From positions 64,001 to 128,000 of IMG/VR virus record IMGVR_UViG_3300037067_007264: a stretch of DNA of 64,000 nucleotides; one strand, given 5' to 3'. A model generated the notes under the pieces. That model searched no databases. It worked only from the letters and a program-made list of their open reading frames with translations, and was not told the DNA's origin. Below, piece by piece: positions 35 to 63,819 of the stretch. Origin of the DNA: a virus. Taxonomy: Duplodnaviria > Caudoviricetes. Both the position numbers and the translations under genes were made by a program. How positions within the stretch are numbered: the stretch's first letter is position 1; each line of letters begins with the position of its first letter.

Positions 35-526
35 ATGCAAGATACGAAAGAGGAGCAAAGCATAGAAGAGTATTGGGGTTTGTTCAGGGATAGCCTGCCT
101 GGAGCAGAGTCCTCAGTAGAGGCAATCTATCGTATTTTGGAGATTCTGTGTCGGCAGGTTGACGCCTTCTCAGGTTGTGATGAACGAAAAGGGAGGTATC
201 CGCAGCTAGTTACCTCCCGTACTCGGAACCTACCTAGTTGGAAGCTCACCTTGACCTACTGGAATCACACTCAGGATGAGGCCGTGATTCTAACCTCAAC
301 TGGTCAAGTGTACTCAACCGTAGTTGCAGACTTATTCAATCAGGTAACCTCAGCCCTGAAAAAAGAGACTGCAAAACGGATCGCATGGGTGGATGATACT
401 GAGAGGGAGTTGGCTGCCCTGAAGAAAAACCTTCATATCTCAGAGAAGTTCTGCAGTCTCCTCGGAACTTATGTCCCTGAACAACAGAGCCTACCCATTG
501 GGAGTATGGCTAAAGAGCTTACCTGA
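35..526 (+). CDS. hypothetical protein with N-terminal IEEYW tag
   Basis: EQSIEEYWGLFRD; class A motif upstream. Confidence 0.85.
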   Translation: MQDTKEEQSIEEYWGLFRDSLPGAESSVEAIYRILEILCRQVDAFSGCDERKGRYPQLVTSRTRNLPSWKLTLTYWNHTQDEAVILTSTGQVYSTVVADLFNQVTSALKKETAKRIAWVDDTERELAALKKNLHISEKFCSLLGTYVPEQQSLPIGSMAKELT

Positions 527-806
527 CGGCTTCGAAGAGGGTCAGTTCCCCTTCGGGGAACCCGATATGGCAGTCCTCTTCTGGGCTCCCCACGGGCTCG
601 TAGTCGTAATCTAGGTTGCCAAGCATCCAGAACCCTCCTTCAGCCCTCTGGCACCTTATCAGCGAGATGGGGCAGTTGAATCCAGGGTCGTCTGGGTTGT
701 AGAGGTGAAGATGGGCCCAAACGATGAGCCCATCTTTGAGGTCTTTCTCTTTTAGTAACCGTCCGCGCTTGTACCAAATCTTGCCAAGCTTCTCACGATT
801 TGACAT
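519..806 (-). CDS. hypothetical protein
   Basis: 95-aa ORF convergent with 35..526. Confidence 0.7.
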   Translation of the reverse strand: MSNREKLGKIWYKRGRLLKEKDLKDGLIVWAHLHLYNPDDPGFNCPISLIRCQRAEGGFWMLGNLDYDYEPVGSPEEDCHIGFPEGELTLFEAVR

Positions 807-846
807 ACTGACTACCCGGATAGCACCCTTTTAGTGTAAACTTTGG

Positions 847-875
847 TGAGGATTCGAAACCCCGAGCGTAATACT
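847..875 (+). promoter_or_regulatory. class B motif with no downstream ATG
   Basis: TGAG 847, CGTAATACT 867. Confidence 0.55.
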
Positions 876-1107
876 ACTCAATCTGAACTAGGACTTCGAG
901 AGGTAACTTCGCCTCCTTGAGAACCCAGATTGAACCTTCCGTACCGCCAACTTGTCTTTGGTCCTCAAACCAAAGACAAGTAGCTTGCTCTACTCCATTC
1001 TCAGCCACTATTTTGGAGACCACCATATCAGGACCCTCATCAGTATTGAGGTTAACTCTGTCCCCAACTTTTATGGGTACCTCTTCATCATTGTCTATGT
1101 TTGCCAT
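874..1107 (-). CDS. YodC/DUF2158-like small protein
   Basis: IKVGDRVNL..GPDMVV..ATCLWF pattern. Confidence 0.7.
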   Translation of the reverse strand: MANIDNDEEVPIKVGDRVNLNTDEGPDMVVSKIVAENGVEQATCLWFEDQRQVGGTEGSIWVLKEAKLPLEVLVQIE

Positions 1108-1118
1108 GGATTCCCATC

Positions 1119-1706
1119 CTATCTCTTGCCTGATGCTTGTTGAACAACTTGATCAAACGGGGGTAGTGCAGCGGGAGCCTCTCGAGGGGATAGGGAGGGG
1201 GCTGAATCGGAGTGTACTATTACCCCTACCTGAGCCTGTACCCCATCACTCTGGGCTGCTGGCTTCCTTACAACAGCATCTTCCCGTTGGACAGAGGAAA
1301 TCTCTGGAGTCCTCGAGAAGTACCCAGTTTCGGTACCCTTCTTTTTTCGTATCAAGGGTACCAACTGCGGGCCGGCTAAAGGAAGCGGAGTCTCTGGGGG
1401 GCTCGCCGTGCTTGCTATGCTTGCTATGCTTTGGGTTACTTCACCTTTTGTGACCCCAATATAGGCTCTGATGAATGCTTGTAGGTCGTTGTGGTTAGTC
1501 TCAGTATCCTTCGAAAGTTCGTTGAGCCTAGAGGATAAGACCTCGTATGTAGCTTTAGTGGCCGTCGTATCCGGTGGCTTGAACCAACTCGCTGCTGCAG
1601 TTAGAATGGCAGCGGTACCTAAAATGAAACCCCTAGCCGACAGAACCTGGGACAAGATCTTGAAAGCTTTGGATGTTGGGGGCTCAGAAGGATTTTCGTC
1701 GGCCAT
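1119..1706 (-). CDS. membrane-anchored hypothetical protein
   Basis: hydrophobic GFILGTAAILTAAASWF then coiled coil; GGTGTC variant motif upstream. Confidence 0.75.
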   Translation of the reverse strand: MADENPSEPPTSKAFKILSQVLSARGFILGTAAILTAAASWFKPPDTTATKATYEVLSSRLNELSKDTETNHNDLQAFIRAYIGVTKGEVTQSIASIASTASPPETPLPLAGPQLVPLIRKKKGTETGYFSRTPEISSVQREDAVVRKPAAQSDGVQAQVGVIVHSDSAPSLSPREAPAALPPFDQVVQQASGKR

Positions 1707-1741
1707 GATGTTTCATGACACCGGTAAACTGAGAAAAGTAT

Positions 1742-1770
1742 TGAGAAAAGGATCTCTTGCACGTAATACT
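1742..1770 (+). promoter_or_regulatory. class B motif
   Basis: TGAG 1742, CGTAATACT 1762, then AGGAG and ATG 1786. Confidence 0.7.
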
Positions 1771-1785
1771 GATTAGGAGTTCTAA

Positions 1786-2210: not shown

Positions 2211-2260
2211 GCTTCATCTCTCTCATCCGTAATAGTGAGTGCAGTTACTAGGAACACCCA

Positions 2261-2509: not shown

Positions 2510-2511
2510 TC

Positions 2512-6338: not shown

Positions 6339-7196
6339 TTACACTAAGTTCCGTATCGGTTCAAGTCGTACCTTGAGCTTTTTTACGACCTTAGTCTGCA
6401 ATTGGCGTACCCTCTCGCGGGAGACCCCGAGTTGAGTACCTAGTTCCTTGAGGCTCACAACCTCTTCCGGATCCTTCATGAGACGATCCGTCACGATTCT
6501 AATCTCGCGTGGGGTTAGGGAGGACATAGCTTCTTTCACGGATTCTTGGTAGAGAGCTTGAAGCTCATGGTCCACCACATAATCATCCTGTCTCTGCAGG
6601 TCAGAGGACAGACTGTCTCCAATCTCCAAGTGGCTACCATCTTTGCTCCTATGGGAGTCCATCGACAAGGACAAGTCCCTCTTATCGGTAGCCTGCATGA
6701 ATTGTTGAACCTTCTTCAGAGGGAGATTCATGCTCTTTACTAATGCCTGTTCAACCTCACTTGGAGTCGTGTAAGTGTTCTGAGCTCGGACCTTCTCCTT
6801 ATGAAACTTGAAGAAGTCCTTTGATCGAAACTTCACTAAAGAGTTGGTCTCGTTTTGGTACTTGACCACATGTTTGAATAGGTAGGCTCGAATCCAATAC
6901 ACGGCAAATGTGACGAATCGGTTACCACTATCTGGATCGTAACGACTGTCAATAGCCATAAGGAGGCCAAGGTTACCCTCGCTGATCAGCTCCTCTATTG
7001 GAATTGGGTATCGCTTAAACTGAAGGGCAACCGCGGTCACATATCGTAGAGAAGCGTTAATGATCTTTGCTCGAGCTGCATAGTCTCCTTTGTCCCTCCA
7101 AGCCTTGTACAGACGAATCTCCTCTTCTCTTGAGAGTACAGGGATCGACTTCACATAGGTGATGTAGTCAGATATCGTCTTATCAATATGGAACAT
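6339..7196 (-). CDS. RNA polymerase sigma factor, RpoH/sigma32-like
   Basis: region 1.2 LSREEE; region 2 ELISEGNLGLLMAI..YDP..RFVTFAVYWIRA; region 4 LTPREIRIV..SLKELGTQLGVSRERVRQLQ. Confidence 0.95.
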   Translation of the reverse strand: MFHIDKTISDYITYVKSIPVLSREEEIRLYKAWRDKGDYAARAKIINASLRYVTAVALQFKRYPIPIEELISEGNLGLLMAIDSRYDPDSGNRFVTFAVYWIRAYLFKHVVKYQNETNSLVKFRSKDFFKFHKEKVRAQNTYTTPSEVEQALVKSMNLPLKKVQQFMQATDKRDLSLSMDSHRSKDGSHLEIGDSLSSDLQRQDDYVVDHELQALYQESVKEAMSSLTPREIRIVTDRLMKDPEEVVSLKELGTQLGVSRERVRQLQTKVVKKLKVRLEPIRNLV

Positions 7197-7249: not shown

Positions 7250-7792
7250 CTATCGATTCCTTGTGTTGAACTCAAGGAGGTCCATCCTCGCTCTTAGTTC
7301 TTGATTATCGCTCTCGAGTCTCGCTATTCGACCCAGTAGTTCACTGAGGGTATAGGTCAGCCTCACATTATTTTCATACACGATACTCTGAAGTTGATTG
7401 AAATCATTGTTACCTGATATGTCAAGGTGGTGGATGGAATCCCAAGAACCCATACCCCCACTCGAGACAAGTAAGGGTCCACCACCAGATAGACCATTGC
7501 CGATGTTTTCTGGTGCAGGGCCGATCTGAACTCCAGTAGGTTCAACTTGAAGAGGCCTTAATGAAGAAGAATCGATGCGTATGGACCCACTATCATCCCC
7601 GTAGAATGTTGGATGTAACACCTCGGATGTAGGAGGACCAAGTATTCCAGATGGATAGTTCCTATGAGTCATCAAGTCCCATTCCTCTTCACGAAGTTTG
7701 GAAATCTTGAGAAGCTCATCCCGAAGACTGCTGATGGACGGCTTTGGTGCAGGCCTGATAGCCGCCCAGTACTCTTCTAAGTCGTCTTCCAT
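7250..7792 (-). CDS. N-terminal LEEYW-tag protein with C-terminal coiled coil
   Basis: MEDDLEEYWAAIRP; start reassigned by GGTGTA at 7805-7810. Confidence 0.8.
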   Translation of the reverse strand: MEDDLEEYWAAIRPAPKPSISSLRDELLKISKLREEEWDLMTHRNYPSGILGPPTSEVLHPTFYGDDSGSIRIDSSSLRPLQVEPTGVQIGPAPENIGNGLSGGGPLLVSSGGMGSWDSIHHLDISGNNDFNQLQSIVYENNVRLTYTLSELLGRIARLESDNQELRARMDLLEFNTRNR

Positions 7793-7859: not shown

Positions 7860-8555
7860 GTGTTCAAGAAAGACGTTAGGGAGATTGATACCCTGGATGT
7901 TGACGAGAGTGGTCACCTGAAGACCGCACTCGAAGCCCTTCGATTACTAATCATTGAAAAGCTTGAGTCAGGTCAAAGAACTCGATTCGCTTCAGTGGCT
8001 AGCTTGTGTGATGTAGCTCAATCGCTAATGAGATCTGAAGCGAACCCACGAGTCCCAAAGAGTAGGAAAGTTGCCTATATGGAGGATTATGAGGGTGCTG
8101 AGGGTGAGTATACCCCAAACGTTGTTGGAGATGTCCAATTCATGGGTCAACCAGTAATGTACCCGGATCCTAGGTACCAAAAAAGGAACATGGGTATTCA
8201 GATGGATGCCCTTTCCCAAGTTAACATAGAGAATCAGCGGTCTCAATGGGCTGCAGCTGAAGCTCAAGAACTTCGAGACTTGCTATCTGTTCGTGAAGTT
8301 ATAGGGGCATCTAGTAATAAAGATCTACTCGATGCCAGAGTAGCTAAGTTATTCAAGAACATAGGAGAGAGAACTGAAAATGGTAACCTGGTACATTCCG
8401 AGCTTTCACGGGGATCTTCAACTGGAGGCTCTAAGTCCAACAGAGACATCCCTTCGAATGTACAGCCTGTCCAATGTGGAACTGAGGGTAATGGAATCCT
8501 TCAGGAAGAAGGCTCTGAGAGGCGGGATACTATTCAAGCCTTGGGCGACAGCTGA
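7860..8555 (+). CDS. hypothetical protein
   Basis: GTG 11 nt after GGTGTA; 176-nt overlap with next ORF. Confidence 0.75.
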   Translation: MFKKDVREIDTLDVDESGHLKTALEALRLLIIEKLESGQRTRFASVASLCDVAQSLMRSEANPRVPKSRKVAYMEDYEGAEGEYTPNVVGDVQFMGQPVMYPDPRYQKRNMGIQMDALSQVNIENQRSQWAAAEAQELRDLLSVREVIGASSNKDLLDARVAKLFKNIGERTENGNLVHSELSRGSSTGGSKSNRDIPSNVQPVQCGTEGNGILQEEGSERRDTIQALGDS

Positions 8556-9168
8556 TAGCTTCCCTCCCATTTCGGAGTCCATATGTAGGACGGACCAGGG
8601 AATGACAGTTCGACTCCAGGCCTCTATCACCAAGGTAGCCAAGCACATAACTTCCAGACTGAAGCCCAGTCGAAGTCAGATCTCGGTAGTGAAGCTATCC
8701 AATGGTAATCTTCAGGAGTATAGGATCGATCCAACTCCTTCTGTAGCGGTAGCCTATCGAAGACCCTCTGTGACAGAGTCCATTGAGGAGTACTGGGAGG
8801 CTATCAAGTTGCCGGCGCTTACCGTGGCAGCTACGACAGTTGCCGTACCGGATAGAGGTTGTCCCGTTCCTGAATTTGCCAAGGCTGAGATTCGAGCTAC
8901 AAGGGTTCTAGAGGCATTCTTGGACCCAGGACAGATGGAGGACTTCCGACGGACAAATCAATTCATTACCATTGGTCAGGATACCGGCCATCGATACCTA
9001 CTTACCTCACGGATGAAGGTGAATAAGGGAGCCTTGTTTGACCTGGATCTTGATCGGTCCATTTGTGTACATGATTGGGAGGTACCAGCAGCTGAAGAGC
9101 TTTTGGGTCTCCACTTGTTCCTATCACTCCCAGGTTGGGAGAGTTGGATGCTCGAACTACCGGAGTGA
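8380..9168 (+). CDS. hypothetical protein with internal IEEYW tag
   Basis: TESIEEYWEAIKLP in central linker. Confidence 0.8.
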   Translation: MVTWYIPSFHGDLQLEALSPTETSLRMYSLSNVELRVMESFRKKALRGGILFKPWATADSFPPISESICRTDQGMTVRLQASITKVAKHITSRLKPSRSQISVVKLSNGNLQEYRIDPTPSVAVAYRRPSVTESIEEYWEAIKLPALTVAATTVAVPDRGCPVPEFAKAEIRATRVLEAFLDPGQMEDFRRTNQFITIGQDTGHRYLLTSRMKVNKGALFDLDLDRSICVHDWEVPAAEELLGLHLFLSLPGWESWMLELPE

Positions 9169-10235: not shown

Positions 10236-10547
10236 ATGCTAGAGTTCAAAGTAAATACTCCTGATTCTAAACTTTTGGAAGACCTAGTTGAGAGTGAGAA
10301 GCTCAGCGAAGAGGAGGGGGAGGCCTTTTCCCGAATGCTAAGCGACCTCAAGGCTAGGAAGTTTCAGAAGCTGACTCCACGTCAGCGTGACTGGGTCGAA
10401 GGGGTCCACAAGCGACTTGGGTTAGATCCAGGGGCAGAGAATCTGGTCAGTTCGGGTCAACTTAGGGTTACCGAGGAAGAGCGGGCTAGCCTCAAGGGGT
10501 TTCTTGGTACCCTGGGTCCAAAAAGACTAAGGCCACCAGGTCGATAA
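10236..10547 (+). CDS. hypothetical protein
   Basis: GGTATA variant upstream. Confidence 0.75.
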   Translation: MLEFKVNTPDSKLLEDLVESEKLSEEEGEAFSRMLSDLKARKFQKLTPRQRDWVEGVHKRLGLDPGAENLVSSGQLRVTEEERASLKGFLGTLGPKRLRPPGR

Positions 10548-13307: not shown

Positions 13308-13838
13308 ATGTCTAGCAGACTGAGAGCTCTTGAATCCGATATCACTACACTCAACGTTGATGTAATTGTCAATGCTGCCAACGAAGTTATGCTTGGAGGC
13401 GGCGGGGTAGACCACGCAATCCATGCTGTAGCAGGGCCAGGGCTTCTGGAAGCCTGTAAGAGGGTCGTTGAGGTAAGTCCTGGAGTCAGGTGCCCAACTG
13501 GGGAAGCTCGCATCACACCGGCCTTTAGCCTGCCTTGCAGGTATGTTATTCACACGGTTGGACCCATCTGGAAAGGTGGGTTCAACAAAGAGGCTGAGCT
13601 TCTCACTTCTTGCTACCGAGAGAGCTTGAAGCTCGCAGCTCAATTCGGAACCTCGGTTGCCTTTCCAAGCATCAGCGCCGGGGCCTATGGTTACCCAACG
13701 GATAAGGCTTGTGAGATAGCTGTACGAGAATGCAAAGCATTCCTGAAAACTGACAGAACTCTCAATGATGTGATTCTAGTTTCATACGAGTCACCGATGA
13801 TCTTCGATATCCTCACGAAGATGATCCAATACCTCTAG
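13308..13838 (+). CDS. macro domain ADP-ribose hydrolase (YmdB-like)
   Basis: DITTLNVDVIVNAAN..GGGGVDHAIH..AG; VIHTVGPIW; AFPSISAGAYGYP. Confidence 0.95.
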   Translation: MSSRLRALESDITTLNVDVIVNAANEVMLGGGGVDHAIHAVAGPGLLEACKRVVEVSPGVRCPTGEARITPAFSLPCRYVIHTVGPIWKGGFNKEAELLTSCYRESLKLAAQFGTSVAFPSISAGAYGYPTDKACEIAVRECKAFLKTDRTLNDVILVSYESPMIFDILTKMIQYL

Positions 13839-15188: not shown

Positions 15189-15213
15189 GGCCAAGTGTAA
15201 GGCTTGGGTAAAG
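15189..15213 (+). repeat. 25-nt exact repeat of 27294..27318
   Basis: ggccaagtgtaaggcttgggtaaag at both sites. Confidence 0.85.
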
Positions 15214-15701
15214 TAGCTGACACCGACGATATCGAGTCATTCTGGGATGGGCTGAGGCCTCCACGGGATCCGAGTACATTCACCAATGTAGCTGTCGAGA
15301 GTGTCAACTTAGAAAACCCTGTCGATGAGGAATCAATTCCTTATGTGACTCGTTACACCGTTGATTATGGTGACAACTCTCCCCTTGAGATAGAGGAGTC
15401 TAGTGCCTCCTTCACCACTATTGCCGAGGGTAATATCATCACGGACCCACCCTACTCTTCTCACTTGAGTGGCACGGACAGATCAAACAGGAGTCTCTTT
15501 AGAGAGATCGTTTACGCAACGGAAAGACTCCGCCAGTTACTAGGGTCAGCTGGAATAACCTATAACTTCACCAGACTGATAGATGGAATTGATATTAGAG
15601 CTCAGGATCTTAGTATTGGACCTGAAGATCCACGTTTAGGTTACTACCGAGAGATGACTGTTCTCATGGCCAATTCTGAGGATACCAATGCCAGAAGATA
15701 A
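15204..15701 (+). CDS. hypothetical protein with N-terminal IESFW tag
   Basis: DTDDIESFWDGLRPP. Confidence 0.8.
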   Translation: MGKVADTDDIESFWDGLRPPRDPSTFTNVAVESVNLENPVDEESIPYVTRYTVDYGDNSPLEIEESSASFTTIAEGNIITDPPYSSHLSGTDRSNRSLFREIVYATERLRQLLGSAGITYNFTRLIDGIDIRAQDLSIGPEDPRLGYYREMTVLMANSEDTNARR

Positions 15702-17196
15702 TGAAGTTGAATCCTATTGGGACCATCGGGAAGGTATTCGGACTCCTCCGACTCAAGAGTCTCGAGACCAATGGAACCCTAGTGGGCAACAGATATTCAA
15801 CATCCTGACTCGAGTGTTTGCAGATCCTCCCGCCGAGTATATCAGCCAGACTGAGAACGCTAACCTGATCATCACCCATCTAACTCGACAGTACAGGACT
15901 ACAGGTAACTACCCTGACTATGAAACAGTGCGTAATACATTTGAGACGAGAATAGAACCTGGTTGTGTTCTACTCTTAGATCGCATTGTACATAGTAACT
16001 TGTATAGTCGTACCCTGACTAGTGGAGAGTTGTGGGAGTACATGAGGAGGATGTATTCAAGTACCCCTACTTCTCGCATCCCTGAGGTAGATAGACAGAT
16101 CAGTGACTATGTCCTTGAGTATTGCAGGGAACACCATGCCTACCCATCGATAGCTATCATGCGTGGGTACTTCATTTCGAGCATGAGAATTCAGGAACGA
16201 ATTCAGGACTTGATTGTTCGTGTAGGGGGCCTCGATGGTGATATCCCATCTCCAAGCCTACCCCAAGAAGTGACGGCGCTTCAAGAAGAGGGTGAGTCCC
16301 AGAGTCAAGTTATCCTGGATATGCGTAGATTGGCTCTGCTACTGAGCAACCTTCAAGAACTCATCGACAGAGTTGGGGACGATGACCACATTGATTCGAT
16401 CATCACCGAGGTGTTCACTTGGGTTGAAGCTCAAGGTACTGCCCACAACATGCGTACTAGTTGGTGGCAAGACACCCTTCACAACTTCGAGGTTACCTAC
16501 CATATTCGTCGAGGGAGTGTTCATCGACAAGGGACTCATGCTCACGACAGTACTGCTGCAGACCGTAGGATTCTAGCATACACTGAACAGTACATGGGGA
16601 TGGTTGGGCATCTACCGAGCCAGGACGAGACTCGAAGATACTTCACAAGCGAGAATGATGGTCATGCTATAACAAGGTTGTCAGAAATAAACAGGAACGA
16701 AGTACCCCAGCATGAGAGACGCATGGATGCTGGTACCATGTTCCTAGGCCATAACATAGCAGACCTAGAGTTACCGGAGAGACGTTCCGACGATGAGCGG
16801 GAGTATGACACTCGTATCAACCTCAGGCGGGTTGCCCTGCTGCTCAATGGGATCATTGAGACATCCGATAATATGTCAGAACCCCTCAACAGGCGGGTGC
16901 TCAGTAACTTACAGACATCTCTTGATGAGTTAGGGGGTAGAACTTTCAACCATTATGGGGATGAGGACTGGAGGAGGACAACCCTACATAACTTCCGAGT
17001 GGAGTTCCTACCCATGAGTGCTCCGGGCACGTTCCCTCGTCCAGAGGAACTTTATCCAACTGAGAGACATGCCTACCCACCACCTAGGGATCCAATGACG
17101 ACCAGACCTCAGACCAGACCTCAAGAAAGGGTTGCTGAGGACAATAGGGTAGATGGGCCTGCTGAAGATGACTCTGTATCGATAACCAATGACTGA
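15688..17196 (+). CDS. repeat-containing protein with N-terminal VESYW tag
   Basis: EDNEVESYWDH; internal repeats. Confidence 0.85.
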   Translation: MPEDNEVESYWDHREGIRTPPTQESRDQWNPSGQQIFNILTRVFADPPAEYISQTENANLIITHLTRQYRTTGNYPDYETVRNTFETRIEPGCVLLLDRIVHSNLYSRTLTSGELWEYMRRMYSSTPTSRIPEVDRQISDYVLEYCREHHAYPSIAIMRGYFISSMRIQERIQDLIVRVGGLDGDIPSPSLPQEVTALQEEGESQSQVILDMRRLALLLSNLQELIDRVGDDDHIDSIITEVFTWVEAQGTAHNMRTSWWQDTLHNFEVTYHIRRGSVHRQGTHAHDSTAADRRILAYTEQYMGMVGHLPSQDETRRYFTSENDGHAITRLSEINRNEVPQHERRMDAGTMFLGHNIADLELPERRSDDEREYDTRINLRRVALLLNGIIETSDNMSEPLNRRVLSNLQTSLDELGGRTFNHYGDEDWRRTTLHNFRVEFLPMSAPGTFPRPEELYPTERHAYPPPRDPMTTRPQTRPQERVAEDNRVDGPAEDDSVSITND

Positions 17197-17395
17197 ATCT
17201 GAAGACAGCATCGAGTCCTATTGGGAGGTAGTTCGTCCTCACTTGATAGAGAGAGCTCGTCAACGAAGGGCTGCTCTACTCAAGAATATTCTAGGGGAAC
17301 ATCCGATAAAAACCTACAAGATCATCAAGGAATGGAACACATGTGAGTCCATCAGAGAGTTAAATTTGTCAGATGGCTACTACAAGAAGTGGTGA
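17189..17395 (+). CDS. small protein with N-terminal IESYW tag
   Basis: EDSIESYWEVVRP. Confidence 0.8.
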   Translation: MTESEDSIESYWEVVRPHLIERARQRRAALLKNILGEHPIKTYKIIKEWNTCESIRELNLSDGYYKKW

Positions 17396-17436
17396 CATAG
17401 AATCATATTGGGAGGTAGTTCGTCCTCACTTGATAG
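17219..17436 (+). repeat. 31-nt direct repeat (17219..17249, 17406..17436) encoding YWEVVRPHLI
   Basis: tattgggaggtagttcgtcctcacttgatag twice. Confidence 0.9.
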
Positions 17437-17705
17437 TCGAAAGCTCCATCAACTCCATGGTATTGCTGAAGGCTTTGATGAGGGTTAGCCGAAGAGTTTT
17501 GGTGCCAACCTTTGCGGCTGACCTGAAGATCCGCGAGTATATCTCGACGGTATTCAACACCTTCGGGGTCGAGGTCAGGTTTGAAACGATCCGGGAGCAC
17601 TTCCGTGGGGTACTAACTGAGTATGACTTCGAAAAGCCATCTGAAAACTTGGAGGTGCTCAAACGTCTTGACGAGATCTCCCGCATGTGGCCGGATGTGC
17701 TTTGA
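17373..17705 (+). CDS. protein with N-terminal IESYW tag
   Basis: GDIESYWEVVRP. Confidence 0.8.
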   Translation: MATTRSGDIESYWEVVRPHLIVESSINSMVLLKALMRVSRRVLVPTFAADLKIREYISTVFNTFGVEVRFETIREHFRGVLTEYDFEKPSENLEVLKRLDEISRMWPDVL

Positions 17706-18055
17706 TGACTGATGACATCGAGTCCTACTGGGAAGGCCTACGCCCGCCGCGTAAACCAGGGAAGGATCCGCCCAAGGGCAGTGTCTGTGACCATATCGAT
17801 CCGACCAAGATCGAAGGTTACCACATTTCAGAAGATGCTCTGTACCTGCTCGAGGATCCAGTGGATGGGGCTACTGCCTCTGACTACCAGGGAGAGTCCT
17901 GCGTAGTGTTCAGACCCAGGTGGTACAAGCTGCACCGGTGGGTCTGGTGGCTGTTCATCACTGGAGGGTTACTCTCCTCATACGAGTGGACCTTTACAGT
18001 GATAGACCTGAAGGTACATAAAGCCTATCGCCGAAGGAGAGAGTGGCCTGGCTAG
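17705..18055 (+). CDS. protein with N-terminal IESYW tag
   Basis: TGATG coupling; MTDDIESYWEGLRPP. Confidence 0.8.
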   Translation: MTDDIESYWEGLRPPRKPGKDPPKGSVCDHIDPTKIEGYHISEDALYLLEDPVDGATASDYQGESCVVFRPRWYKLHRWVWWLFITGGLLSSYEWTFTVIDLKVHKAYRRRREWPG

Positions 18056-21031: not shown

Positions 21032-21590
21032 CTGGCCCTTTGCCGGGGAACATCTGAAGAGCTATTCGGAGTTGCTCTTCAGTCAGATCTTGAAGGGTCA
21101 CTGCGAAGCGGGTCCCCTTACCAATCTTGTTGTAGCAGTTGATCCCACCCTTGTATCTTGGGAAGTCCTCGTGGAGTTTCTCGATGGCCTGAAAGCGAGC
21201 GGTCTCCTCTTCCTTGAGAGTCTCCCTTCGCTGAATGGCCCTCTTCACCCAATCCTGTTGTCGCTTGACTTCGACCATGAGCTCATCTTCCAAGTTTGGA
21301 AGATCTTCCTCAATGGTTGTTCCGCGATAGAGTATATCTCCATCTCGAGAAATTCGAATGGTTTCGAAGATGAACAGCAACTTCGATGGTTTGTCACCAG
21401 GTTCATTCTGCTCACGAATCTCGAGAGCCCTATACAACTCAGGGTCTTTCACCACGAGTATGTACCAGTACCAATTGATGGCTAGTTCCGATTCAGTGCC
21501 TAGTCCAGCGAGCTTGGCCTGGATCAAGAATAGGGCATCTTTCGCTCGAACAGCAACTTCTCTTGTTGAGTAGCCTTTTGGGGTATCCAT
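21012..21590 (-). CDS. hypothetical protein
   Basis: class B motif 21676/21656 upstream. Confidence 0.8.
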   Translation of the reverse strand: MDTPKGYSTREVAVRAKDALFLIQAKLAGLGTESELAINWYWYILVVKDPELYRALEIREQNEPGDKPSKLLFIFETIRISRDGDILYRGTTIEEDLPNLEDELMVEVKRQQDWVKRAIQRRETLKEEETARFQAIEKLHEDFPRYKGGINCYNKIGKGTRFAVTLQDLTEEQLRIALQMFPGKGPDDEEKD

Positions 21591-28205: not shown

Positions 28206-28517
28206 ATGGCAAAGAAGAAGTATCGCCTTACTTGGAGTAGAGAGCCAAATGAACAGGGTTTGGCCAGCGTCAGTCAAGGACCTCGAGGTGCTGTCCTCAA
28301 GGTCAATGGTGTTCGAGTTGGTCATGTATATGCTAACAGCATAGGTTTCCACGACTACAAGGGTTGGTATTGGGTAGCTCGTCACGGGGGCGCCGATGGT
28401 GACCCAACCATCCCTGAGATCCCCCTCAAGAACACCTGCAATACTCCAACCAAAGAGCTTGAAGACGCCAAGAAGGCGTGCGAAGCCTATGTTCGAGGGG
28501 TCTTAGATAAGGCCTGA
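28206..28517 (+). CDS. hypothetical protein, paralog of 26701 C-terminal domain
   Basis: class B 28173/28193; PRG..NGV.V..GW.W.A..NTCN..AK..C.A. Confidence 0.8.
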   Translation: MAKKKYRLTWSREPNEQGLASVSQGPRGAVLKVNGVRVGHVYANSIGFHDYKGWYWVARHGGADGDPTIPEIPLKNTCNTPTKELEDAKKACEAYVRGVLDKA

Positions 28518-28723
28518 CAGGATCCTCCAAAGGCATTGTCCTCCAAGAGACTATGGAAGCCTATCGAGTGATAGGCTTCCGAACAAGCCTCATAGTTGAT
28601 CCACTTCACATAGAGGTGGTTGCATTTGATACAAGTAACGGCCCCTGGACGTCCTGTCCACCGAAAGTTGCAAGAAACACACTGGTAGTGGGCGTCACGG
28701 AAGTCCACCTGCTTGTTCGGCAT
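28487..28723 (-). CDS. small zinc-ribbon protein
   Basis: CVSC..CIKC. Confidence 0.65.
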   Translation of the reverse strand: MPNKQVDFRDAHYQCVSCNFRWTGRPGAVTCIKCNHLYVKWINYEACSEAYHSIGFHSLLEDNAFGGSCQALSKTPRT

Positions 28724-28746
28724 AACTACCCGTTCTCACAAGCAGT

Positions 28747-29001
28747 TCAATCGTTCCAGGGGTGGCCGTTGGTGACCTCTTCGAGGAGCTTCGTGTAGTA
28801 AGCAATCTGAGCCTCAAGTCCTTGAATGGAGCACCCCTTGTGATGCTTGTCACCGTCTATCGAGATCTGCACGTTGGTCTTCCCGCACTCCCTACACTTC
28901 GGGTAGAACCTTCTATGAGTGAAGGCATCATCCAACCGACACTGCATCTTGCCGATTCTCTGTCGGAGGCGGTACTTGACGGGAGTGTGATTGGCCTTCA
29001 T
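28747..29001 (-). CDS. small CxxC..H..C protein
   Basis: class B variant 29034/29014. Confidence 0.75.
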   Translation of the reverse strand: MKANHTPVKYRLRQRIGKMQCRLDDAFTHRRFYPKCRECGKTNVQISIDGDKHHKGCSIQGLEAQIAYYTKLLEEVTNGHPWND

Positions 29002-29009
29002 GCACAGTA

Positions 29010-29237
29010 CTACGTTTGAGCGGGTGGGATCTCTTCAGTATCCGGGAGTTTTATTTGAAGGTCCTTGTCCGGATGGTAGAGGGAGTAGTCTACTCCAGTG
29101 GCTATCTTAATACTCCCGTTCGGTTGAGGGGTGACCTCCGAGACTCTTTCCCATCCAAAGTAAGTGCAGATACTGATACCTACCATGTCACCTACCTTGA
29201 TGTCCTTAGCCTTTACGTCGAGGGTCTTGTCGTTCAT
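29010..29237 (-). CDS. small beta-barrel-like protein
   Basis: VKAKDIKVGDMV; AAGGA SD. Confidence 0.7.
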   Translation of the reverse strand: MNDKTLDVKAKDIKVGDMVGISICTYFGWERVSEVTPQPNGSIKIATGVDYSLYHPDKDLQIKLPDTEEIPPAQT

Positions 29238-29249
29238 TGCGGTTCCTTT

Positions 29250-29392
29250 GAAGTCATAGATCTAGCTGAGGTAACTAGCCGGTAGATTCGAACTACCTAC
29301 GACTAGCCAGTCGTATTCCAGATTCGAACTGGTTGGGTGATCAAGCCCTATCCCCTATGGAAACCAGTTACCTCAGCTAGATCTATGACTTC
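29250..29392 (-). ncRNA. tRNA-like structured RNA with two T-arms
   Basis: perfect 27-bp inverted repeat enclosing five hairpins, two with TTCGAAT loops. Confidence 0.7.
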
Positions 29393-29508
29393 TTGTTAGT
29401 CTCTTTCAGGCCTTCCTTTACCTCAGCCTTGTTGTTCTGGCGGCGAGCCTTCTTGGAGCCAACCTTGGCCTCCTCGCGGGTAAACCAACGGGAGGTGGTG
29501 CCCTTCAT
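29383..29508 (-). CDS. 41-aa basic peptide not in the ORF track
   Basis: MKGTTSRWFTREEAKVGSKKARRQ..; starts 1 nt after upstream stop. Confidence 0.55.
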   Translation of the reverse strand: MKGTTSRWFTREEAKVGSKKARRQNNKAEVKEGLKETNKKS

Positions 29509-29509
29509 C

Positions 29510-30043
29510 TCAGTCTTTACTTTTGCGCGTAGTGCCACGTTTTTGGGCTTTCTTCTCGAACAACTTTGGAAAGTTCTGCTGAATTAGGTTAGCATCCCGT
29601 TCGAGATCTTCAAGGTTAGCAGAACTCCTCAGGAACGGGATGATCCCAGTATTGTCACTACTGAGGAAGTCGAACACGAAACACCCTGAGAACTCCCCGT
29701 TGTGTTGATCTCGATGTAGTCGAAGGACTGGGATTTCGTGAAGCTTTCCCTTAGAAGCTACAATCGAGAGGGTCCGTCCATCTTTTGAGATGAGAGGTTT
29801 GACCCCACGTGTGACAAGCTCACCTACAAGCTTCCCAAGGTAGACTCGAATCTTGTCTTCCATGCTAGCCACCTTGGATTCAGAGTCCAAAGCCCTTTGA
29901 ATAGCTTCCTCCAAAGATGCCTTGATTCGTTGCTTGTTGGCATCGTACTGAGAGACACCGCACTTGGAGGAGATGAAGGTTTGCATGAACCCGAAGTCCA
30001 TGAGAATTTGAGATGCCTTGGAGGCTACTTGTTTTGAGTTCAT
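29510..30043 (-). CDS. hypothetical protein
   Basis: class B 30079/30059. Confidence 0.8.
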   Translation of the reverse strand: MNSKQVASKASQILMDFGFMQTFISSKCGVSQYDANKQRIKASLEEAIQRALDSESKVASMEDKIRVYLGKLVGELVTRGVKPLISKDGRTLSIVASKGKLHEIPVLRLHRDQHNGEFSGCFVFDFLSSDNTGIIPFLRSSANLEDLERDANLIQQNFPKLFEKKAQKRGTTRKSKD

Positions 30044-37282: not shown

Positions 37283-37546
37283 TTGACTCGAATTGACGAC
37301 AACTCAGGCATCTACAAGGTGGCACCTGGCGAGAAGTTAGTTCTACGGTGTTACAAGTGCCAGGTGTCAATAGATGTTGTGAATGATCCAACAATAGAAC
37401 ACCCAGCACTCTTGGAGTTCGCTGCTACTCATCAACCTCACGGTCAGCTATTTGTTGGTACCAATGATGAGAACGGGAAGTTTCAAGCAATAGAAGGTCC
37501 AGGAGAGTTCCTAGACTTAGAGCGTGAAGATGGCCCCTCAAGTTGA
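37283..37546 (+). CDS. small CxxC..HxxH protein
   Basis: RCYKC..FAATHQPH. Confidence 0.7.
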   Translation: MTRIDDNSGIYKVAPGEKLVLRCYKCQVSIDVVNDPTIEHPALLEFAATHQPHGQLFVGTNDENGKFQAIEGPGEFLDLEREDGPSS

Positions 37547-38024
37547 CGATAGTATTGAATCCGATTGGACAATAGCAAGACCTAATCGACGCTCGGCAGA
37601 GGAGATTGCCAAGGTCGAGCAGGATGGGAGAGGTTTCGCTTGGGTTGGGATTATCTTCAGGAGAAAAGCCATAGGATCTCGTATCATGCTTCCGATCCCT
37701 GCTCCGATGCGAGTTATCATTCAAGAAACTGAGAGGGAGCAAGAGATCCAAGTCTTCCAGCTCAACTATGTACCTCATGAGACCCATGAAGTTGATGCTT
37801 TGCATCTGTATCTATCAGAAGTTGGAAATGAGCCGGTAGCTAGACTCATTCTCAACCGAAGGACAGTCAGTCCACACGAGCCCCTCTCCTTGGGATTTCG
37901 CATCACTGGGTTTGGTTACCTCAATGCATGCTGGCTCACTAAGACTTCAGATCCAATCCCAACCCTAGTACATGACAGGGACAATGAGGAACGAGAGAGC
38001 CCTGATATGGGTGGTCCTATATGA
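37524..38024 (+). CDS. protein with variant N-terminal IESDW tag
   Basis: DDSIESDWTIARP. Confidence 0.8.
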   Translation: MKMAPQVDDSIESDWTIARPNRRSAEEIAKVEQDGRGFAWVGIIFRRKAIGSRIMLPIPAPMRVIIQETEREQEIQVFQLNYVPHETHEVDALHLYLSEVGNEPVARLILNRRTVSPHEPLSLGFRITGFGYLNACWLTKTSDPIPTLVHDRDNEERESPDMGGPI

Positions 38025-58612: not shown

Positions 58613-59170
58613 ATGCCCCCTGAACCCGATGATATAGAAGAGTACTGGGGTGTAGCCCGCCCCGAGCGGTTGGTTACACCCCAGTCAGTACCCTCTGAGT
58701 CAATGACTGTTGAGGAGGTTCTAAAGACCATCAAGAAGTTCAACAAGGAAGTTCTTTGCATGGGCCTTGCCGTTATGGTGAACCATGGAGATGTAAGCTC
58801 ACCTACAATTGTTGCTGAATCTGCCAAAGAGCTTGAACGCTTGACGAAGAATACCTTGGTTCAATTGACCCTACTAGCTGGGGTTCCTGTAAGTATACTA
58901 AAACAGTGCAATGACTCGAGGACAAATGTCAGATCTAGGAACCTCGATGACCCGAGAGCTTCCAACAACCTCTTCATGCCTGACAGGACTGAGGAGCCTC
59001 AGAGTATGCGCATCCTCCCTCAGGGGCAAGTAAGGTCAGCAATGGGTCGTATCCTACAACCTCAATCCCGTTGTTCTAATTGTGGAGTACTTACTAACTC
59101 AAATCAACGGTTGTGTGACCCGTGTAGGGTTCACCGAGCTCAGGCCAGAAGGCGCAGGTCAGGTTACTAA
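58613..59170 (+). CDS. N-terminal IEEYW-tag protein with C-terminal zinc ribbon
   Basis: PDDIEEYWGVARP; CSNC..CDPC; GGTGTA 58568. Confidence 0.8.
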   Translation: MPPEPDDIEEYWGVARPERLVTPQSVPSESMTVEEVLKTIKKFNKEVLCMGLAVMVNHGDVSSPTIVAESAKELERLTKNTLVQLTLLAGVPVSILKQCNDSRTNVRSRNLDDPRASNNLFMPDRTEEPQSMRILPQGQVRSAMGRILQPQSRCSNCGVLTNSNQRLCDPCRVHRAQARRRRSGY

Positions 59171-59171
59171 G

Positions 59172-60112: not shown

Positions 60113-60142
60113 TCCGATTGGGTTTCGGTGTATTGGGCCTCA

Positions 60143-61441: not shown

Positions 61442-61647
61442 CTGATCGACACTCAGGTTACCTTGTAACCCTAGATAAGGACATTCGTTCAGACGATGCA
61501 GAGAGTACTTTGAATGCTCTTCGGATGGTTCGAGGTGTTATCTCGGTTGAGCCCGTTATCTCTAACATCGAAGTGCATATCGCCGAGGATAGGGCCAAGA
61601 GAGAGCTGTTGAGTAAGATCTACGAGTTTCTGGTGACTCTCAAATGA
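61438..61647 (+). CDS. small ferredoxin/ACT-like fold protein
   Basis: LVTLDKDIRSDDA..ALRMVRGVISVEP. Confidence 0.7.
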   Translation: MTDRHSGYLVTLDKDIRSDDAESTLNALRMVRGVISVEPVISNIEVHIAEDRAKRELLSKIYEFLVTLK

Positions 61648-62081
61648 AGCCATCCAAGATCCACATCCGAGTTGTCCACGCTGAGCTAGAAAGAGCTGAC
61701 GAGGATAGTGCTTATCGGTCTGTATGCCCTGTATGTAAGACCGGGCTACTGCTGATTCACAGGGACAAGGAGACCTTCAAACTAGTCAGATCCGATATCT
61801 GCATTCAGTGCGGGCAAGGGTTCTACTACACGGACAATATGATCAACGGGGAAGAGTTCACTGAGAAGGTTCCTTACCCTCTCTTTGAGATCGTAGGGCC
61901 TCCCTGTCCGGCGCCTGGGTGCAAGGGAGTCTTGACTCCAACCATGTCACTGAAGACCAGGGTGTGGTTTAGCAAGTGTCACGTCTGCAATGGAGAGTTC
62001 AGTAGAGCTCCACTTGGTAGTAAGAGAAAGTGGATCCGTCATCGAAACCTCGATGTCATTAAGGGCGGGAAGGACGATTGA
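61644..62081 (+). CDS. double zinc-ribbon protein
   Basis: CPVC, CIQC, CPAPGC, CHVC. Confidence 0.75.
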   Translation: MKPSKIHIRVVHAELERADEDSAYRSVCPVCKTGLLLIHRDKETFKLVRSDICIQCGQGFYYTDNMINGEEFTEKVPYPLFEIVGPPCPAPGCKGVLTPTMSLKTRVWFSKCHVCNGEFSRAPLGSKRKWIRHRNLDVIKGGKDD

Positions 62082-62612
62082 TTGCCCCCGAACCTTCGAT
62101 TTTGGATGCTCAGTGATCTATCACCAAGCCCTGAGGGGGCTACTTTCACCCGCGAGTCCCCGGAACATGAGGTATTATGGATCAACCGTAACTTGACGGT
62201 GTCCACGACTCACGAGATGGGTGTTAACCACCGTGTTCGGCTACCTCGTTTGACCTTTGAGGGTGGGAGGTTCTTGATACTCGAACAAGTCCAACGTCTG
62301 ATGGCTAACCTAGCCACGTTTTCGAACAACCCAGGAGCTCAGGACGGCACCCTCTATGGGGTGCAACATGCCCTGCCTACCTATGTTGAGCACCCGACAA
62401 CCGGGCAAGTTATCCTGACTTGGATTCTCTCACTGGGCTACTCGCTTATGAACCTCACCCCTCAATTCAACGGTTCAGAAATGACCCTTCCCGTAGGGGC
62501 TCTGATGGGCTACTTGAGACACCTGATTGACAACATGCCGGCAAATAGGTTGTCTGAGCCCTACAACGGGCCACGACCCACCCGCTTCGAACGGATACTC
62601 GAGGAAGATTGA
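62082..62612 (+). CDS. protein with C-terminal TRFER tag
   Basis: ends RPTRFERILEED. Confidence 0.8.
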   Translation: MPPNLRFWMLSDLSPSPEGATFTRESPEHEVLWINRNLTVSTTHEMGVNHRVRLPRLTFEGGRFLILEQVQRLMANLATFSNNPGAQDGTLYGVQHALPTYVEHPTTGQVILTWILSLGYSLMNLTPQFNGSEMTLPVGALMGYLRHLIDNMPANRLSEPYNGPRPTRFERILEED

Positions 62613-62671
62613 GTATTCTGAGCAATGGGCTTGCTTGACCTGACTGATGAGAGTATTCTGTAATCTCCTAA

Positions 62672-63448
62672 ATGCTAATAAAAACCACATCAGCTTGTTC
62701 CGGTGGTTGTTCCCATTGCATGGAGGATGCAACTCCATCTGGTGAGCACATGGACATGGACACGTTCATGCGAGCACTCGACTTTACTGAGAGGGCAGAG
62801 TGTGAGGTTATCAAGGCTGGGATGCCGGTGATGCTAATGCTCTCAGGAGGAGAGTGTACAGACAACCCTCTCATCGTTGAGATGGCCTCCCAGGTAGTCA
62901 AGAGAGGATGGATCCTCTCTATTCTAACTCACGGTCTTTGGCTTGATAACAAGGAACTCAGAGATGAACTTCTTCGAGATGATTGGAAGAATGTTCTCAT
63001 TCAAGTTACCAATGATGATCGGTACTACCCTCGCAAGCCTCCAAAGTTAGAGCATCCGAGGGTGGTTTATGTGAATAAGCTCCTTGTTTTATCGACCCTT
63101 GGTCGAGCTGCAAAACCCACGTTTGATCCTAAGGGGTTAACTCCTCGATCGGCTCCAAGCAGCTTCAACTTCAGATCTCTCACTCGTTCGTACAAGTCCA
63201 TGCCTATGGCAATCAAACTCTTGAGGGCTCGAGGTTGTATTGGGCTGGCTGGGTTCTGTACCCCCTCGGTGACTCATGAGGGTGTGGTTGTTGCTGGTGA
63301 AAGCCGATTCTGCTACCCAATAGGAACCGTCGACAGTTCGAATGAGGAATTGACAGCAGCTGTTCTCTCAATGGGATCCTGCAACCGATGCGGACAAGAA
63401 TCTAACTTGGATTCAAGGCACAAGCAAGCGATAGGGGTTCCAGAGTGA
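62672..63448 (+). CDS. radical SAM protein
   Basis: CSGGCSHC, SGGECT, LTHG; C-terminal C..C..CNRC. Confidence 0.9.
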   Translation: MLIKTTSACSGGCSHCMEDATPSGEHMDMDTFMRALDFTERAECEVIKAGMPVMLMLSGGECTDNPLIVEMASQVVKRGWILSILTHGLWLDNKELRDELLRDDWKNVLIQVTNDDRYYPRKPPKLEHPRVVYVNKLLVLSTLGRAAKPTFDPKGLTPRSAPSSFNFRSLTRSYKSMPMAIKLLRARGCIGLAGFCTPSVTHEGVVVAGESRFCYPIGTVDSSNEELTAAVLSMGSCNRCGQESNLDSRHKQAIGVPE

Positions 63449-63819
63449 CCTCTGACAATGACATCGAATCCTATTGGATGGATGTCCGTCCTGTTCGCTT
63501 ACCGCAGGCAGAGCCAGAGGTACCGGAATCACCTAAAGAACCATGGCACCCCTACCCATTCAACTCACTTCGTATCCTTCTGAATGCAGCTGGGAGTCAT
63601 GGTTGTAACTGCCGCAGGGGTTTCACCAGTTTAGAGGGAGATCTAGGATTCAGGTGTGCATGTGGGATGGTATTCCGAATCGGAATAGCTAATGCAAGAA
63701 GAACCGCAGGGGGCTTACTTAGTTACATGCATACTACTGAGTCCAGAACGAGAACCGCGCTGAGACTCACCTATGACCCTAGACAGATTCTAATTGAACT
63801 CGAGAACTTGAGAGAGTGA
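63445..63819 (+). CDS. N-terminal IESYW-tag protein with CxC..CxC
   Basis: DNDIESYWMDVRP. Confidence 0.8.
   Translation: MTSDNDIESYWMDVRPVRLPQAEPEVPESPKEPWHPYPFNSLRILLNAAGSHGCNCRRGFTSLEGDLGFRCACGMVFRIGIANARRTAGGLLSYMHTTESRTRTALRLTYDPRQILIELENLRE

Follow-up and report, generated by a model that had tools for sequence, protein, structure and literature searches.

A shared N-terminal peptide tag on unrelated soluble proteins of huge phages

Introduction

Short terminal peptides that address otherwise unrelated proteins to a common destination have been described in several systems. One is the capsid-targeting sequence (CTS) of the internal proteins of phage T4 (IPI, IPII, IPIII, and Alt), where a short conserved N-terminal peptide is the only thing shared by a diverse, fast-evolving set of small accessory or anti-defence proteins of a large phage (PMC3012670). 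The T4 sequence is rich in acidic and aromatic residues. In peroxisomes, two short signals, PTS1 at the extreme C terminus and PTS2 near the N terminus, are used on separate sets of otherwise unrelated, mainly soluble proteins, and the C-terminal signal is much the commoner. Cargo-loading peptides of encapsulins and encapsulation peptides of bacterial microcompartments, often amphipathic helices on flexible linkers, dock diverse cargo onto the inside of a protein shell, and encapsulin shells share the HK97 fold with phage capsids. Finally, acidic-aromatic docking motifs, such as F-x3-W-x2-L of the p53 TAD on MDM2 or the LIR-type acidic-W-x-x-[LIV] on Atg8, recruit partners in eukaryotes.

Here, we analyzed a stretch of 64,000 nucleotides (referred to as the window), positions 64,001 to 128,000 of the IMG/VR record IMGVR_UViG_3300037067_007264 (Duplodnaviria; Caudoviricetes), in which an earlier note made from the sequence alone had listed 11 proteins sharing a peptide, ten of them near the N terminus. 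The note interpreted it as an acidic amphipathic helix of about 12 residues acting as a second docking signal with its own receptor. We found no paper describing this tag.

Results and discussion

Occurrence and consensus of the tag

The contig (145 kb, G000) is a 28%-complete piece of a huge phage. The observation was confirmed, since all 11 copies are present, with the first hydrophobic codon of the motif at window positions 62, 7780(-), 8782, 15231, 15706, 17210, 17397, 17717, 37554, 58634, and 63463. Ten lie 3 to 10 residues after an in-frame start codon. Two further copies lie outside the window, at positions 21171 and 21764 of the genome. The tagged open reading frames (ORFs) of the window, with database orthologues (P numbers) where found, are as follows.

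35..526 (+), tagged ORF of 163 aa; tag at 56-91, the IEEYW variant in which the R-P step is lost; tag HMM E=1.3e-7; orthologues P0043, P0045, P0047, and P0048 keep the tag
7250..7792 (-), tagged ORF of 180 aa from the ATG at 7792; tag at 7751-7786; C-terminal coiled-coil-like body; directly upstream of the RpoH-like sigma gene (6339-7196, -); orthologues P0021, P0027, P0029, P0031, and P0038
8380..9168 (+), ORF of 262 aa with the only internal copy (residue 135); tag at 8776-8811; also internal in all five orthologues, P0010, P0018, P0020, P0032, and P0034
15204..15701 (+), tagged ORF of 165 aa (TTG start); tag at 15225-15260; first gene of a run of five tagged genes; orthologue in the complete relative G001 (see below) 68% identical
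15688..17196 (+), tagged ORF of 502 aa, the largest; tag at 15700-15747, the VESYWDHR variant with three extra residues before R-x-P-P; relatives at 41-46% identity keep M-P-x-E-x-[DE]-[IV]-E-S-Y-W
17189..17395 (+), tagged ORF of 68 aa; tag at 17204-17239; orthologue P0017
17373..17705 (+), tagged ORF of 110 aa; tag at 17391-17426 (alignment A7)
17705..18055 (+), tagged ORF of 116 aa; tag at 17711-17746; in orthologues the tag is invariant while the linker after it carries substitutions and a 10-residue insertion (alignment A5)
37530..38024 (+), tagged ORF of 164 aa (ATG at 37530, or GTG at 37524); tag at 37548-37583, the IESDW variant; orthologues P0011 and P0028
58613..59170 (+), tagged ORF of 185 aa with a C-terminal zinc-ribbon-like end; tag at 58628-58663; orthologues P0023 and P0046
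63445..63819 (+), tagged ORF of 124 aa (GTG start overlapping the stop of the radical-SAM gene 62672-63448); tag at 63457-63492; orthologue P0008

To exclude chance, we searched the 145-kb genome with the strict pattern [IVL]E[ES][YFD]W..[IVLFA][RK], which occurred 12 times, against a mean of 0.03 in 30 Markov-1 random genomes and 0.003 in 300 residue-shuffled proteomes. A profile (HMM) of the tag found 13 copies in G000, about 24 in a complete 512-kb relative (G001), and 8 and 12 in two further relatives (G002 and G003, respectively) whose shared 502-aa protein is only 38% identical. Overall, the 502-aa family keeps the tag at 38-46% identity.

From 55 nonredundant tags, the consensus is [DE]-[DSE]-[ILV]-E-[SED]-[YF]-W-[ED]-x-[IVL]-R-P-x-R-x-P, in which Trp is invariant. 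Of the 55 tags, 51 lie within 10 residues of a start codon. With 16 residues (under 20), a few fixed positions, and recurrence on otherwise unrelated proteins, the tag is like a short linear motif in these respects. It does not fit a Sec/Tat or lipoprotein signal peptide, as it is acidic and has no hydrophobic stretch.

Selection on the peptide and modularity

Synonymous codons vary, as the earlier note had claimed. Arg at +8 is written with five codons from both codon families (CGA, CGT, CGC, AGG, and AGA), and Ile with ATA, ATC, and ATT. Among the paralogous tags, nucleotide identity is 0.55, with the third codon position the least conserved (0.40, against 0.62 at positions 1+2). In eight orthologous tag pairs between G000 and G001, 29 codon differences are synonymous and 18 are not, the latter mostly at the variable positions. 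Selection thus acts on the peptide and not on the DNA, and these data contradict a nucleic acid element (promoter, ribosome-binding, or recombination site) that merely happens to be translated, for which the only argument is the location at the 5' ends of genes. A companion idea of the earlier note, a tag-specific promoter class, is not borne out either: GGTGTA sits 15 to 17 nt before about 13% of start codons genome-wide and is not specific to tagged genes.

The bodies are unrelated by BLASTP apart from orthologues and two weak paralogue pairs, and tagged proteins from all sources fall into 24 families. In the more divergent families, the tag is among the best-conserved 12-residue windows (rank 7/101, 8/154, 10/131, 11/68, and 14/144). 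However, orthologues within the clade are close (52-87% mean column identity), and in three of eight families the tag is no better conserved than the body. The layout is tag, then linker, then body, the 20 residues after the tag being enriched in Pro (2.3x), Glu (1.75x), and Arg (1.5x). Carriers are 64 to 565 aa long, and none of 53 tagged proteins has a membrane-like segment, against 152 of 1,656 proteins overall.

Tagged genes cluster with each other (five in a row at 15204-18055; 4 to 5 adjacent pairs observed against 0.6 expected, P <= 0.002), so that part of the spread may be local duplication and not grafting. Together with the two weak paralogue pairs, this could suggest that all tagged genes descend from one ancestor by tandem duplication, the bodies having diverged beyond recognition while the N terminus stayed for a generic reason such as expression, solubility, or folding, with no shared partner. 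We consider this unlikely, given the 24 body families with very different lengths and compositions, the precise 16-residue pattern with an invariant Trp kept at 38% body identity, and the family that carries it internally after a 130-residue domain.

Genomic location and relation to the C-terminal tag

All tagged genes lie in the small-ORF accessory half of G001 (10-290 kb and 502-508 kb), and none in the half holding baseplate, tail-fibre, helicase, and exonuclease genes. The same phages carry a far commoner C-terminal tag, PTRFER, but the two were never found on the same protein: 0 of 53 N-tagged proteins carry PTRFER, against 6 expected (P about 0.002), with 150 C-tagged proteins in the comparison. 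This statistic counts orthologues from four related genomes as if independent, and per family it is weaker. Such strict exclusivity is not expected from a generic expression aid.

The arrangement resembles PTS2 and PTS1 in its logic only. There is no sequence relation, no compartment is known in these phages, no Pex5/Pex7-like receptor was sought or found, and 13% of the C-tagged proteins look like membrane proteins. A speculative reading, which we regard as unlikely although it would be of great interest if true, is that these half-megabase phages run a two-signal protein-sorting system, in which the N-terminal label (about 24 proteins per genome) and the mutually exclusive C-terminal label (55 or more per genome) would together address a tenth or more of the proteome to one phage-specific compartment, capsid interior, or machine.

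Predicted conformation of the tag

The hydrophobic positions 0, +3, +4, and +7 fit one face of a helix, and the hydrophobic moment peaks at 110 to 120 degrees (0.58). Amphipathicity is only moderate, however (0.45 at 100 degrees, against 0.34 +/- 0.16 for shuffled tags), and a second peak at 160 degrees (0.50) leaves an extended W-x-x-[ILV] binding mode open. Two AlphaFold2 models draw a short helix followed by coil, both with pLDDT of about 50, and the helix is not proven. Values of about 30 to 50 over these models, even with the Pro/Glu/Arg-rich composition and the 10-residue indel next to an invariant tag, do not settle whether the tag lies in a flexible, nonglobular segment. The physicochemical pattern (acidic run, hydrophobic residue at 0, Trp at +4, aliphatic residue at +7, then Pro) is the one seen in the p53 and LIR-type motifs. 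Those are eukaryotic systems, no SWIB/MDM2 domain was found in G000 or G001, and the comparison describes how the tag may bind and is not a claim of membership.

A different possibility is a cis-acting nascent peptide that slows or arrests translation at the R-P(-P) step while still in the ribosomal exit tunnel, which would place about 25 genes under one translational switch. An invariant Trp is followed four residues later by Arg-Pro, with a second Pro in 11 of 55 tags, somewhat like the SecM, TnaC, and RAPP-type arrest motifs, the motif sits 15 to 20 codons from the start, and the clade conserves a peptide deformylase and a peptidyl-tRNA hydrolase. The resemblance to known arrest motifs was not tested, and stalling was not measured here. 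We consider this very unlikely, since conservation follows an i, i+3, i+4, i+7 pattern with free polar positions between, as for a one-sided protein contact, the Trp-to-Pro spacing is much shorter than in arrest peptides, and several copies lack the Pro (R-L, R-I, and R-D).

A putative docking label

The interpretation in the earlier note was partly supported: the tag is a modular, translated peptide under purifying selection, grafted onto unrelated bodies and forming a set separate from the C-terminal tag, but a receptor of its own was not shown. Our preferred reading, to which we give about even chances, is a modular docking label with a core of about 10 residues (acidic-acidic-[ILV]-E-x-[YF]-W-x-x-[IVL]-R). 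It would present one hydrophobic face flanked by an invariant-class Glu and an Arg, capped by Pro (R-P-x-R-x-P) and held away from the folded body by a flexible linker. A clade of roughly 0.5-Mb phages puts this label on about two dozen unrelated, soluble, mostly small accessory proteins per genome, and we infer that one shared partner binds it noncovalently and so recruits or sorts these proteins as a group, with the more numerous PTRFER label working in parallel. The analysis itself demonstrates the motif, its position and modularity, the selection on the peptide, its linker, its restriction to soluble accessory proteins, and its exclusivity with the C-terminal tag, whereas that it binds anything, and what, is pure inference. 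Co-folding against phage and host hubs had been suggested in advance as a check, and one such job, with the AAA+ N-domain, the J-protein C-domain, and the sigma factor against a tagged protein, gave no answer. Neither partner nor destination was identified. If one partner does read the label, a single peptide defines a functional class among the hundreds of unannotatable ORFs of half-megabase phages and gives a handle for pull-downs, localization, and cargo loading. Together with PTRFER, it would show that huge phages sort a large share of their own proteins by address tags, an organization at which so far only the T4 CTS hints. The tag can also serve as a sequence marker for this clade in metagenomes.

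As to where the label leads, loading into the virion, as with the T4 CTS, is a tentative possibility, and a phage-built assembly or a host hub is equally tentative, while the rest of the reading leaves the destination undetermined. Like the CTS, the tag is a conserved N-terminal peptide on diverse small accessory proteins, but there is no sequence likeness, there are about 24 carriers per genome instead of a handful, and a second, C-terminal tag system runs alongside. No tagged gene lies near the structural genes, one family carries the tag internally, and no conserved cleavage site follows it. Pfam found no T4-type prohead protease or Gp23 capsid protein (PF03420 and PF07068) in the complete G001; the control genomes gave no match either, so this evidence is weak and processing of the T4 type is neither supported nor ruled out. 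Virion content is unknown, the phage being uncultivated and without a proteome. Regarding encapsulins and microcompartments, there is no sequence likeness, no shell partner was identified, and the number and diversity of carriers are far larger here.

Gene neighborhood and alternative roles

The accessory half that holds the tags also encodes genes that could suggest a handling or turnover signal, read by the proteostasis machinery (a phage AAA+ unfoldase, phage J-domain proteins with host DnaK, or a host protease), which would let a whole class of accessory proteins be unfolded, held, or degraded on cue. In one variant, a protease would cut just before the invariant Trp or the Tyr/Phe, exposing a destabilizing N-terminal residue. 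These genes are the RpoH-like (heat-shock type) sigma factor directly downstream of one tagged gene, a pair of J-domain proteins with an HPD motif (one of them 70% identical between G001 and G003), and a Cdc48/p97-like AAA+ ATPase embedded in a cluster of C-tagged genes. A papain-family protease is conserved there too. A disordered linker after the signal is what unfoldases need in order to engage a substrate. However, nothing links these genes to the N-terminal tag in particular, the acidic residue straight after the Trp (36 of 55 tags) would, by N-degron rules, weaken ClpS-type recognition, which was not tested, and timed mass degradation of phage early proteins is not a known phage strategy, so we hold this role to be unlikely.

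We also consider it unlikely that the tag is the recognition element, and perhaps the modification site (invariant Glu, Trp, and Arg), for a phage protein-modifying enzyme, as leader peptides are for RiPP maturases. No enzyme-tag pairing was shown, only 1 of 13 tagged genes in G000 adjoins the radical-SAM gene, and the carriers are folded proteins and not short precursors. In favor of this view, the accessory half conserves the radical-SAM enzyme whose gene overlaps the start of the tagged gene 63445-63819, and the same order holds in G001. Also conserved there are two R2K ATP-grasp ligases, a ThiF/E1-like enzyme, an ADP-ribosylglycohydrolase, and a macro-domain protein. The macro-domain gene is syntenic with the five-gene tag array in G000, G001, and G003, and a Macro gene also lies a few genes upstream of the gene of P0051 on its ENA contig.

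Recurrence of the N-terminal tag and selection on the peptide

To count the copies of the tag, we scanned the whole contig in six frames for [IVL]-E-[ESDQ]-[YFWD]-W, which gave 15 hits, of which 13 carry the full motif. Eleven are in the window, exactly where the earlier note had placed them, so that its observation is confirmed, and two more lie at genome positions 21171 and 21764. Twelve of the 13 begin 3 to 10 residues after an in-frame ATG, GTG, or TTG, while the copy in ORF 8380-9168 is found at residue 135. A possible fourteenth, weaker copy (I-D-S-Y-W-E-S-I-K-P) lies just beyond the window, at genome position 130214 (+), 23 residues into a 163-aa ORF. A strict pattern occurs 12 times, against 0.03 in Markov-1 random genomes and 0.003 in residue-shuffled proteomes.

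Codon usage shows that the peptide, and not the DNA, is conserved. Arg at +8 is written CGA, CGT, CGC, AGG, and AGA, and Ile is written ATA, ATC, and ATT. Third-position identity among the paralogous tags is 0.40, against 0.62 for positions 1+2, and in eight orthologous tag pairs there are 29 synonymous and 18 nonsynonymous codon differences. A DNA or RNA element is contradicted by these data and was considered very unlikely. They also answer a condition that the earlier note had itself set for its refutation, i.e., that the true starts might lie downstream of the motif: the motif is translated, and the true starts cannot lie downstream of it.

The phage genome and its relatives

The window corresponds to bases 64001 to 128000 of a viral contig of 145,487 bp (here, G000) that CheckV rates as 28% complete. 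The contig has no nucleotide match among deposited phages (blastn against INPHARED), and most of its ORFs have no family. A degenerate DNA pattern for the tag hit one IMG/VR record four times. This record, G001, is a complete phage genome of 512,571 bp with direct terminal repeats, which was retrieved whole. One half (about 290 to 480 kb) runs almost entirely on one strand and holds baseplate, tail-fiber, helicase, and exonuclease genes, while the other, accessory half is packed with small ORFs on both strands. A scan of the genomes of 185,579 species for the DNA pattern of the tag gave eight hits, of which seven are chance, being out of context.

DNA of this clade is present in landfill, groundwater, drinking-water, and wood-decay metagenomes; no RNA data set was listed among the sequencing runs, so that nothing can be said about expression. 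Two small contigs of the clade carrying both the N-terminal tag and the C-terminal tag described below (locus L075 and the contig of protein P0040) were binned into “Candidatus Omnitrophota” MAGs, at most a weak hint at the host.

Distribution and consensus of the tag

An HMM of the tag found 13 strong copies in G000 and about 24 in G001, where all of them lie in the accessory half (18 to 235 kb) or at 508 kb, beside the terminal repeat. A profile search of 5.8 billion proteins returned 48 tagged proteins, all hypothetical, from contigs of 510 to 512 kb, 199 kb, 169 kb, and smaller. The 502-aa tagged protein has relatives at 41 to 46% identity that keep M-P-x-E-x-[DE]-[IV]-E-S-Y-W; DNA of the more distant relatives P0050 and P0051 was not retrieved. 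Its relatives in IMG/VR led to two more divergent genome pieces, G002 (71 kb) and G003 (229 kb, 45% complete), with 8 and 12 HMM hits, respectively.

From 55 nonredundant tags, the consensus is [DE]-[DSE]-[ILV]-E-[SED]-[YF]-W-[ED]-x-[IVL]-R-P-x-R-x-P. Trp and Glu/Asp at +1 are both present in 55 of 55, Arg/Lys at +8 in 51 of 55, and Pro at +9 in 43 of 55, and 51 of 55 tags lie within 10 residues of the nearest start codon. The tags of G003 drift toward [VL]-E-[ED]-[YF]-W, against I-E-S-Y-W in G000 and G001. A cis-acting nascent peptide is another explanation that we entertained for the tag, although we regard it as improbable.

Features of the tagged proteins

With the tag removed, BLASTP links only orthologs and two weak paralog pairs, and all the tagged proteins together form 24 families, with lengths of 64 to 565 aa (median of 169 aa). 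Pfam, PHROGs, and NCBIfam gave nothing significant for any tagged body. An ESM-Atlas feature search found nothing for the 502-aa protein, while for the 305-aa tagged protein (genome 21752-22669, positions 606 to 1520 of locus L001) it gave only a BrxC/BrxD-type P-loop ATPase lead (0.93), with a weak match to the NCBIfam BrxD model (E = 0.003). This protein has no obvious Walker A motif and may be a decoy of a BREX defense component.

The 20 residues after the tag are enriched in Pro (2.3x), Glu (1.75x), and Arg (1.5x) and poor in aromatic residues. None of 53 carriers has a membrane-like segment, against 152 of 1,656 proteins overall. In the 116-aa family, the tag is invariant while the next dozen residues vary and take a 10-residue insertion. 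In the five more divergent families, the tag ranks among the best-conserved 12-residue windows, but in three closely related families it is no better conserved than the body. That the tag could be a mere inherited remnant was considered doubtful.

The hydrophobic positions 0, +3, +4, and +7 fit one face of a helix, and the hydrophobic moment peaks at 110 to 120 degrees (0.58), with a second peak at 160 degrees (0.50). AlphaFold2 models of the 202-aa and 502-aa tagged families draw a short helix followed by coil, but at a pLDDT of about 30 to 50, so that the helix is likely but not shown. The overall pLDDT of these models (48 and 50, respectively) was too poor for fold searches, and none was run. 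The layout of the carriers is tag, then linker, then body.

A second tag at the C terminus

The same phages end many other proteins in P-T-R-F-E-R, followed by either x-x-V-[IV]-stop or I-L plus an acidic run. There are about 38 such proteins in G000 (in the window, e.g., 5971, 6032(-), 9802(-), 13867(-), 14294(-), 14785(-), 30909, 31190, 40245, 53721, and 62577), 55 in G001, and 54 in G003. No protein has both tags (0 of 53, with 6 expected; P about 0.002), although orthologs are not independent and the real support is weaker. Twenty of 150 C-tagged proteins (13%) look like membrane proteins, which makes virion loading unlikely for the C-terminal tag and shows that the two labels mark different kinds of protein.

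N-tagged genes cluster with N-tagged genes and C-tagged with C-tagged. Adjacency between N- and C-tagged genes was marginal in G001 (7 observed, 3.5 expected, P = 0.04) and absent in G000, and for this reason binding of one tag to the other was dropped as a leading idea. A retro-sequence relation between the two tags was also discarded, since by inspection the spacings do not match.

Candidate readers of the tag

To search for what might read the tag, we looked for untagged proteins conserved across G000 to G003. Those with coordinates in G000 are as follows.

Conserved untagged genes of G000 considered as possible partners
Window 6339-7196 (-): sigma factor most like RpoH (heat-shock sigma-32; NCBIfam E = 1.6e-52, below the equivalog cutoff), with an N-tagged gene upstream and a C-tagged gene downstream.
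Window 13308-13838 (+): macro-domain protein (Pfam E = 5e-42), 67 to 86% identical across G000 to G003, syntenic with the five-gene tag array and next to the C-tag/N-tag gene arrays in G000, G001, and G003; a Macro gene also lies a few genes upstream of the P0051 homolog on its ENA contig.
Window 62672-63448 (+): short radical-SAM protein (weak matches to rSAM/SPASM maturase families), 71 to 85% conserved across the clade, whose stop overlaps the GTG start of the N-tagged gene 63445-63819; the same order holds in G001.
Genome 28442-29662 (-), outside the window (locus L025): Cdc48/p97-like single-ring AAA+ ATPase with a unique 190-residue N-domain and a long poly-Asp tail, embedded among C-tagged genes and a candidate reader of the C-terminal tag.

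The accessory half of G001 (loci L042 to L054 and L066 to L067) also holds, among its conserved untagged genes, those for two J-domain proteins, two R2K ATP-grasp ligases, a ThiF/E1-like enzyme, an ADP-ribosylglycohydrolase, a papain-family protease, peptide deformylase, a peptidyl-tRNA hydrolase (PTH2), and a Ro60-type vWA protein, a marked protein-modification and proteostasis toolkit. A handling or turnover signal for the proteostasis genes is an unlikely alternative, and a leader for a modifying enzyme is slightly more doubtful. None of these genes is tied to the N-terminal tag by more than proximity. A single co-folding job tested the N-domain of the Cdc48-like AAA+ (residues 1 to 195), the C-terminal part of the J-domain protein (95 to 438), and the RpoH-like sigma factor against the 110-aa tagged protein family; it returned no answer (score of 0.00) and counts neither for nor against binding.

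No SWIB/MDM2 domain and no tubulin turned up in the relatives, and a BLAST-level search for internal repeats, which might mark a scaffold protein, found none in G001 proteins of 300 aa or more. Capture of the conserved Glu by a vWA/MIDAS domain was also considered. Two vWA proteins carry internal tag-like pentapeptides, but one is not conserved in its ortholog, and the idea is an untested lead.

Interpretation and comparison with known systems

The data fit a modular docking label, that is, a short recognition helix or strand on a flexible linker, read by one partner. We consider this reading about as likely as not. Within it, roughly equal weight is given to virion loading, as for the T4 capsid-targeting sequence (PMC3012670), and to recruitment to some phage-built or host hub. 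The recurrence of the motif and the selection on the peptide are shown by the sequences, whereas the partner is inferred. The proposal in the earlier note of an acidic amphipathic helix acting as a docking signal with its own receptor is supported only in part.

The closest known case is the T4 capsid-targeting sequence, and the nearest analogy in logic is the PTS1/PTS2 pair of peroxisomal signals, although we do not claim that the tag belongs to either. We found no paper describing this motif, and a broad comparative paper on jumbo phages contained no occurrence of the phrase “N-terminal motif” in a text search, so that we saw no such tag described there. Such a tag is undescribed in print as far as we could search.

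Other shared sequence features

The hexamer GGTGTA lies at a fixed 15 to 17 nt before the start codon of about 13% of the genes in G000 and G001, in both halves of the genome (z = 12 to 18); in the window, examples are found upstream of the starts at 35, 5722, 12442, 14753(-), 18188, 19126, 38064, and 52799. It is not specific to tagged genes, and a tag-specific promoter class was rejected. The fixed spacing suggests instead a translation-initiation or leaderless-promoter signal.

Two paralogs of roughly 100 aa, conserved across the clade (window 10236-10547 (+) and genome 28142-28441 (-)), both end in L-R-P-P-G-R-stop, which echoes the L-R-P-P-R step of the N-terminal tag, and one of them lies just downstream of the AAA+ gene. 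Outside the window, at genome 11520-12828 (+), two adjacent genes both open with M-G-G-G-[SF]-W-x-x-D-F-Y, possibly a third shared terminal motif. One is a small protein with two C-terminal tags, and the other is a vWA-like protein, without a Pfam match, that has a D-x-[ST]-G-S MIDAS-like motif.
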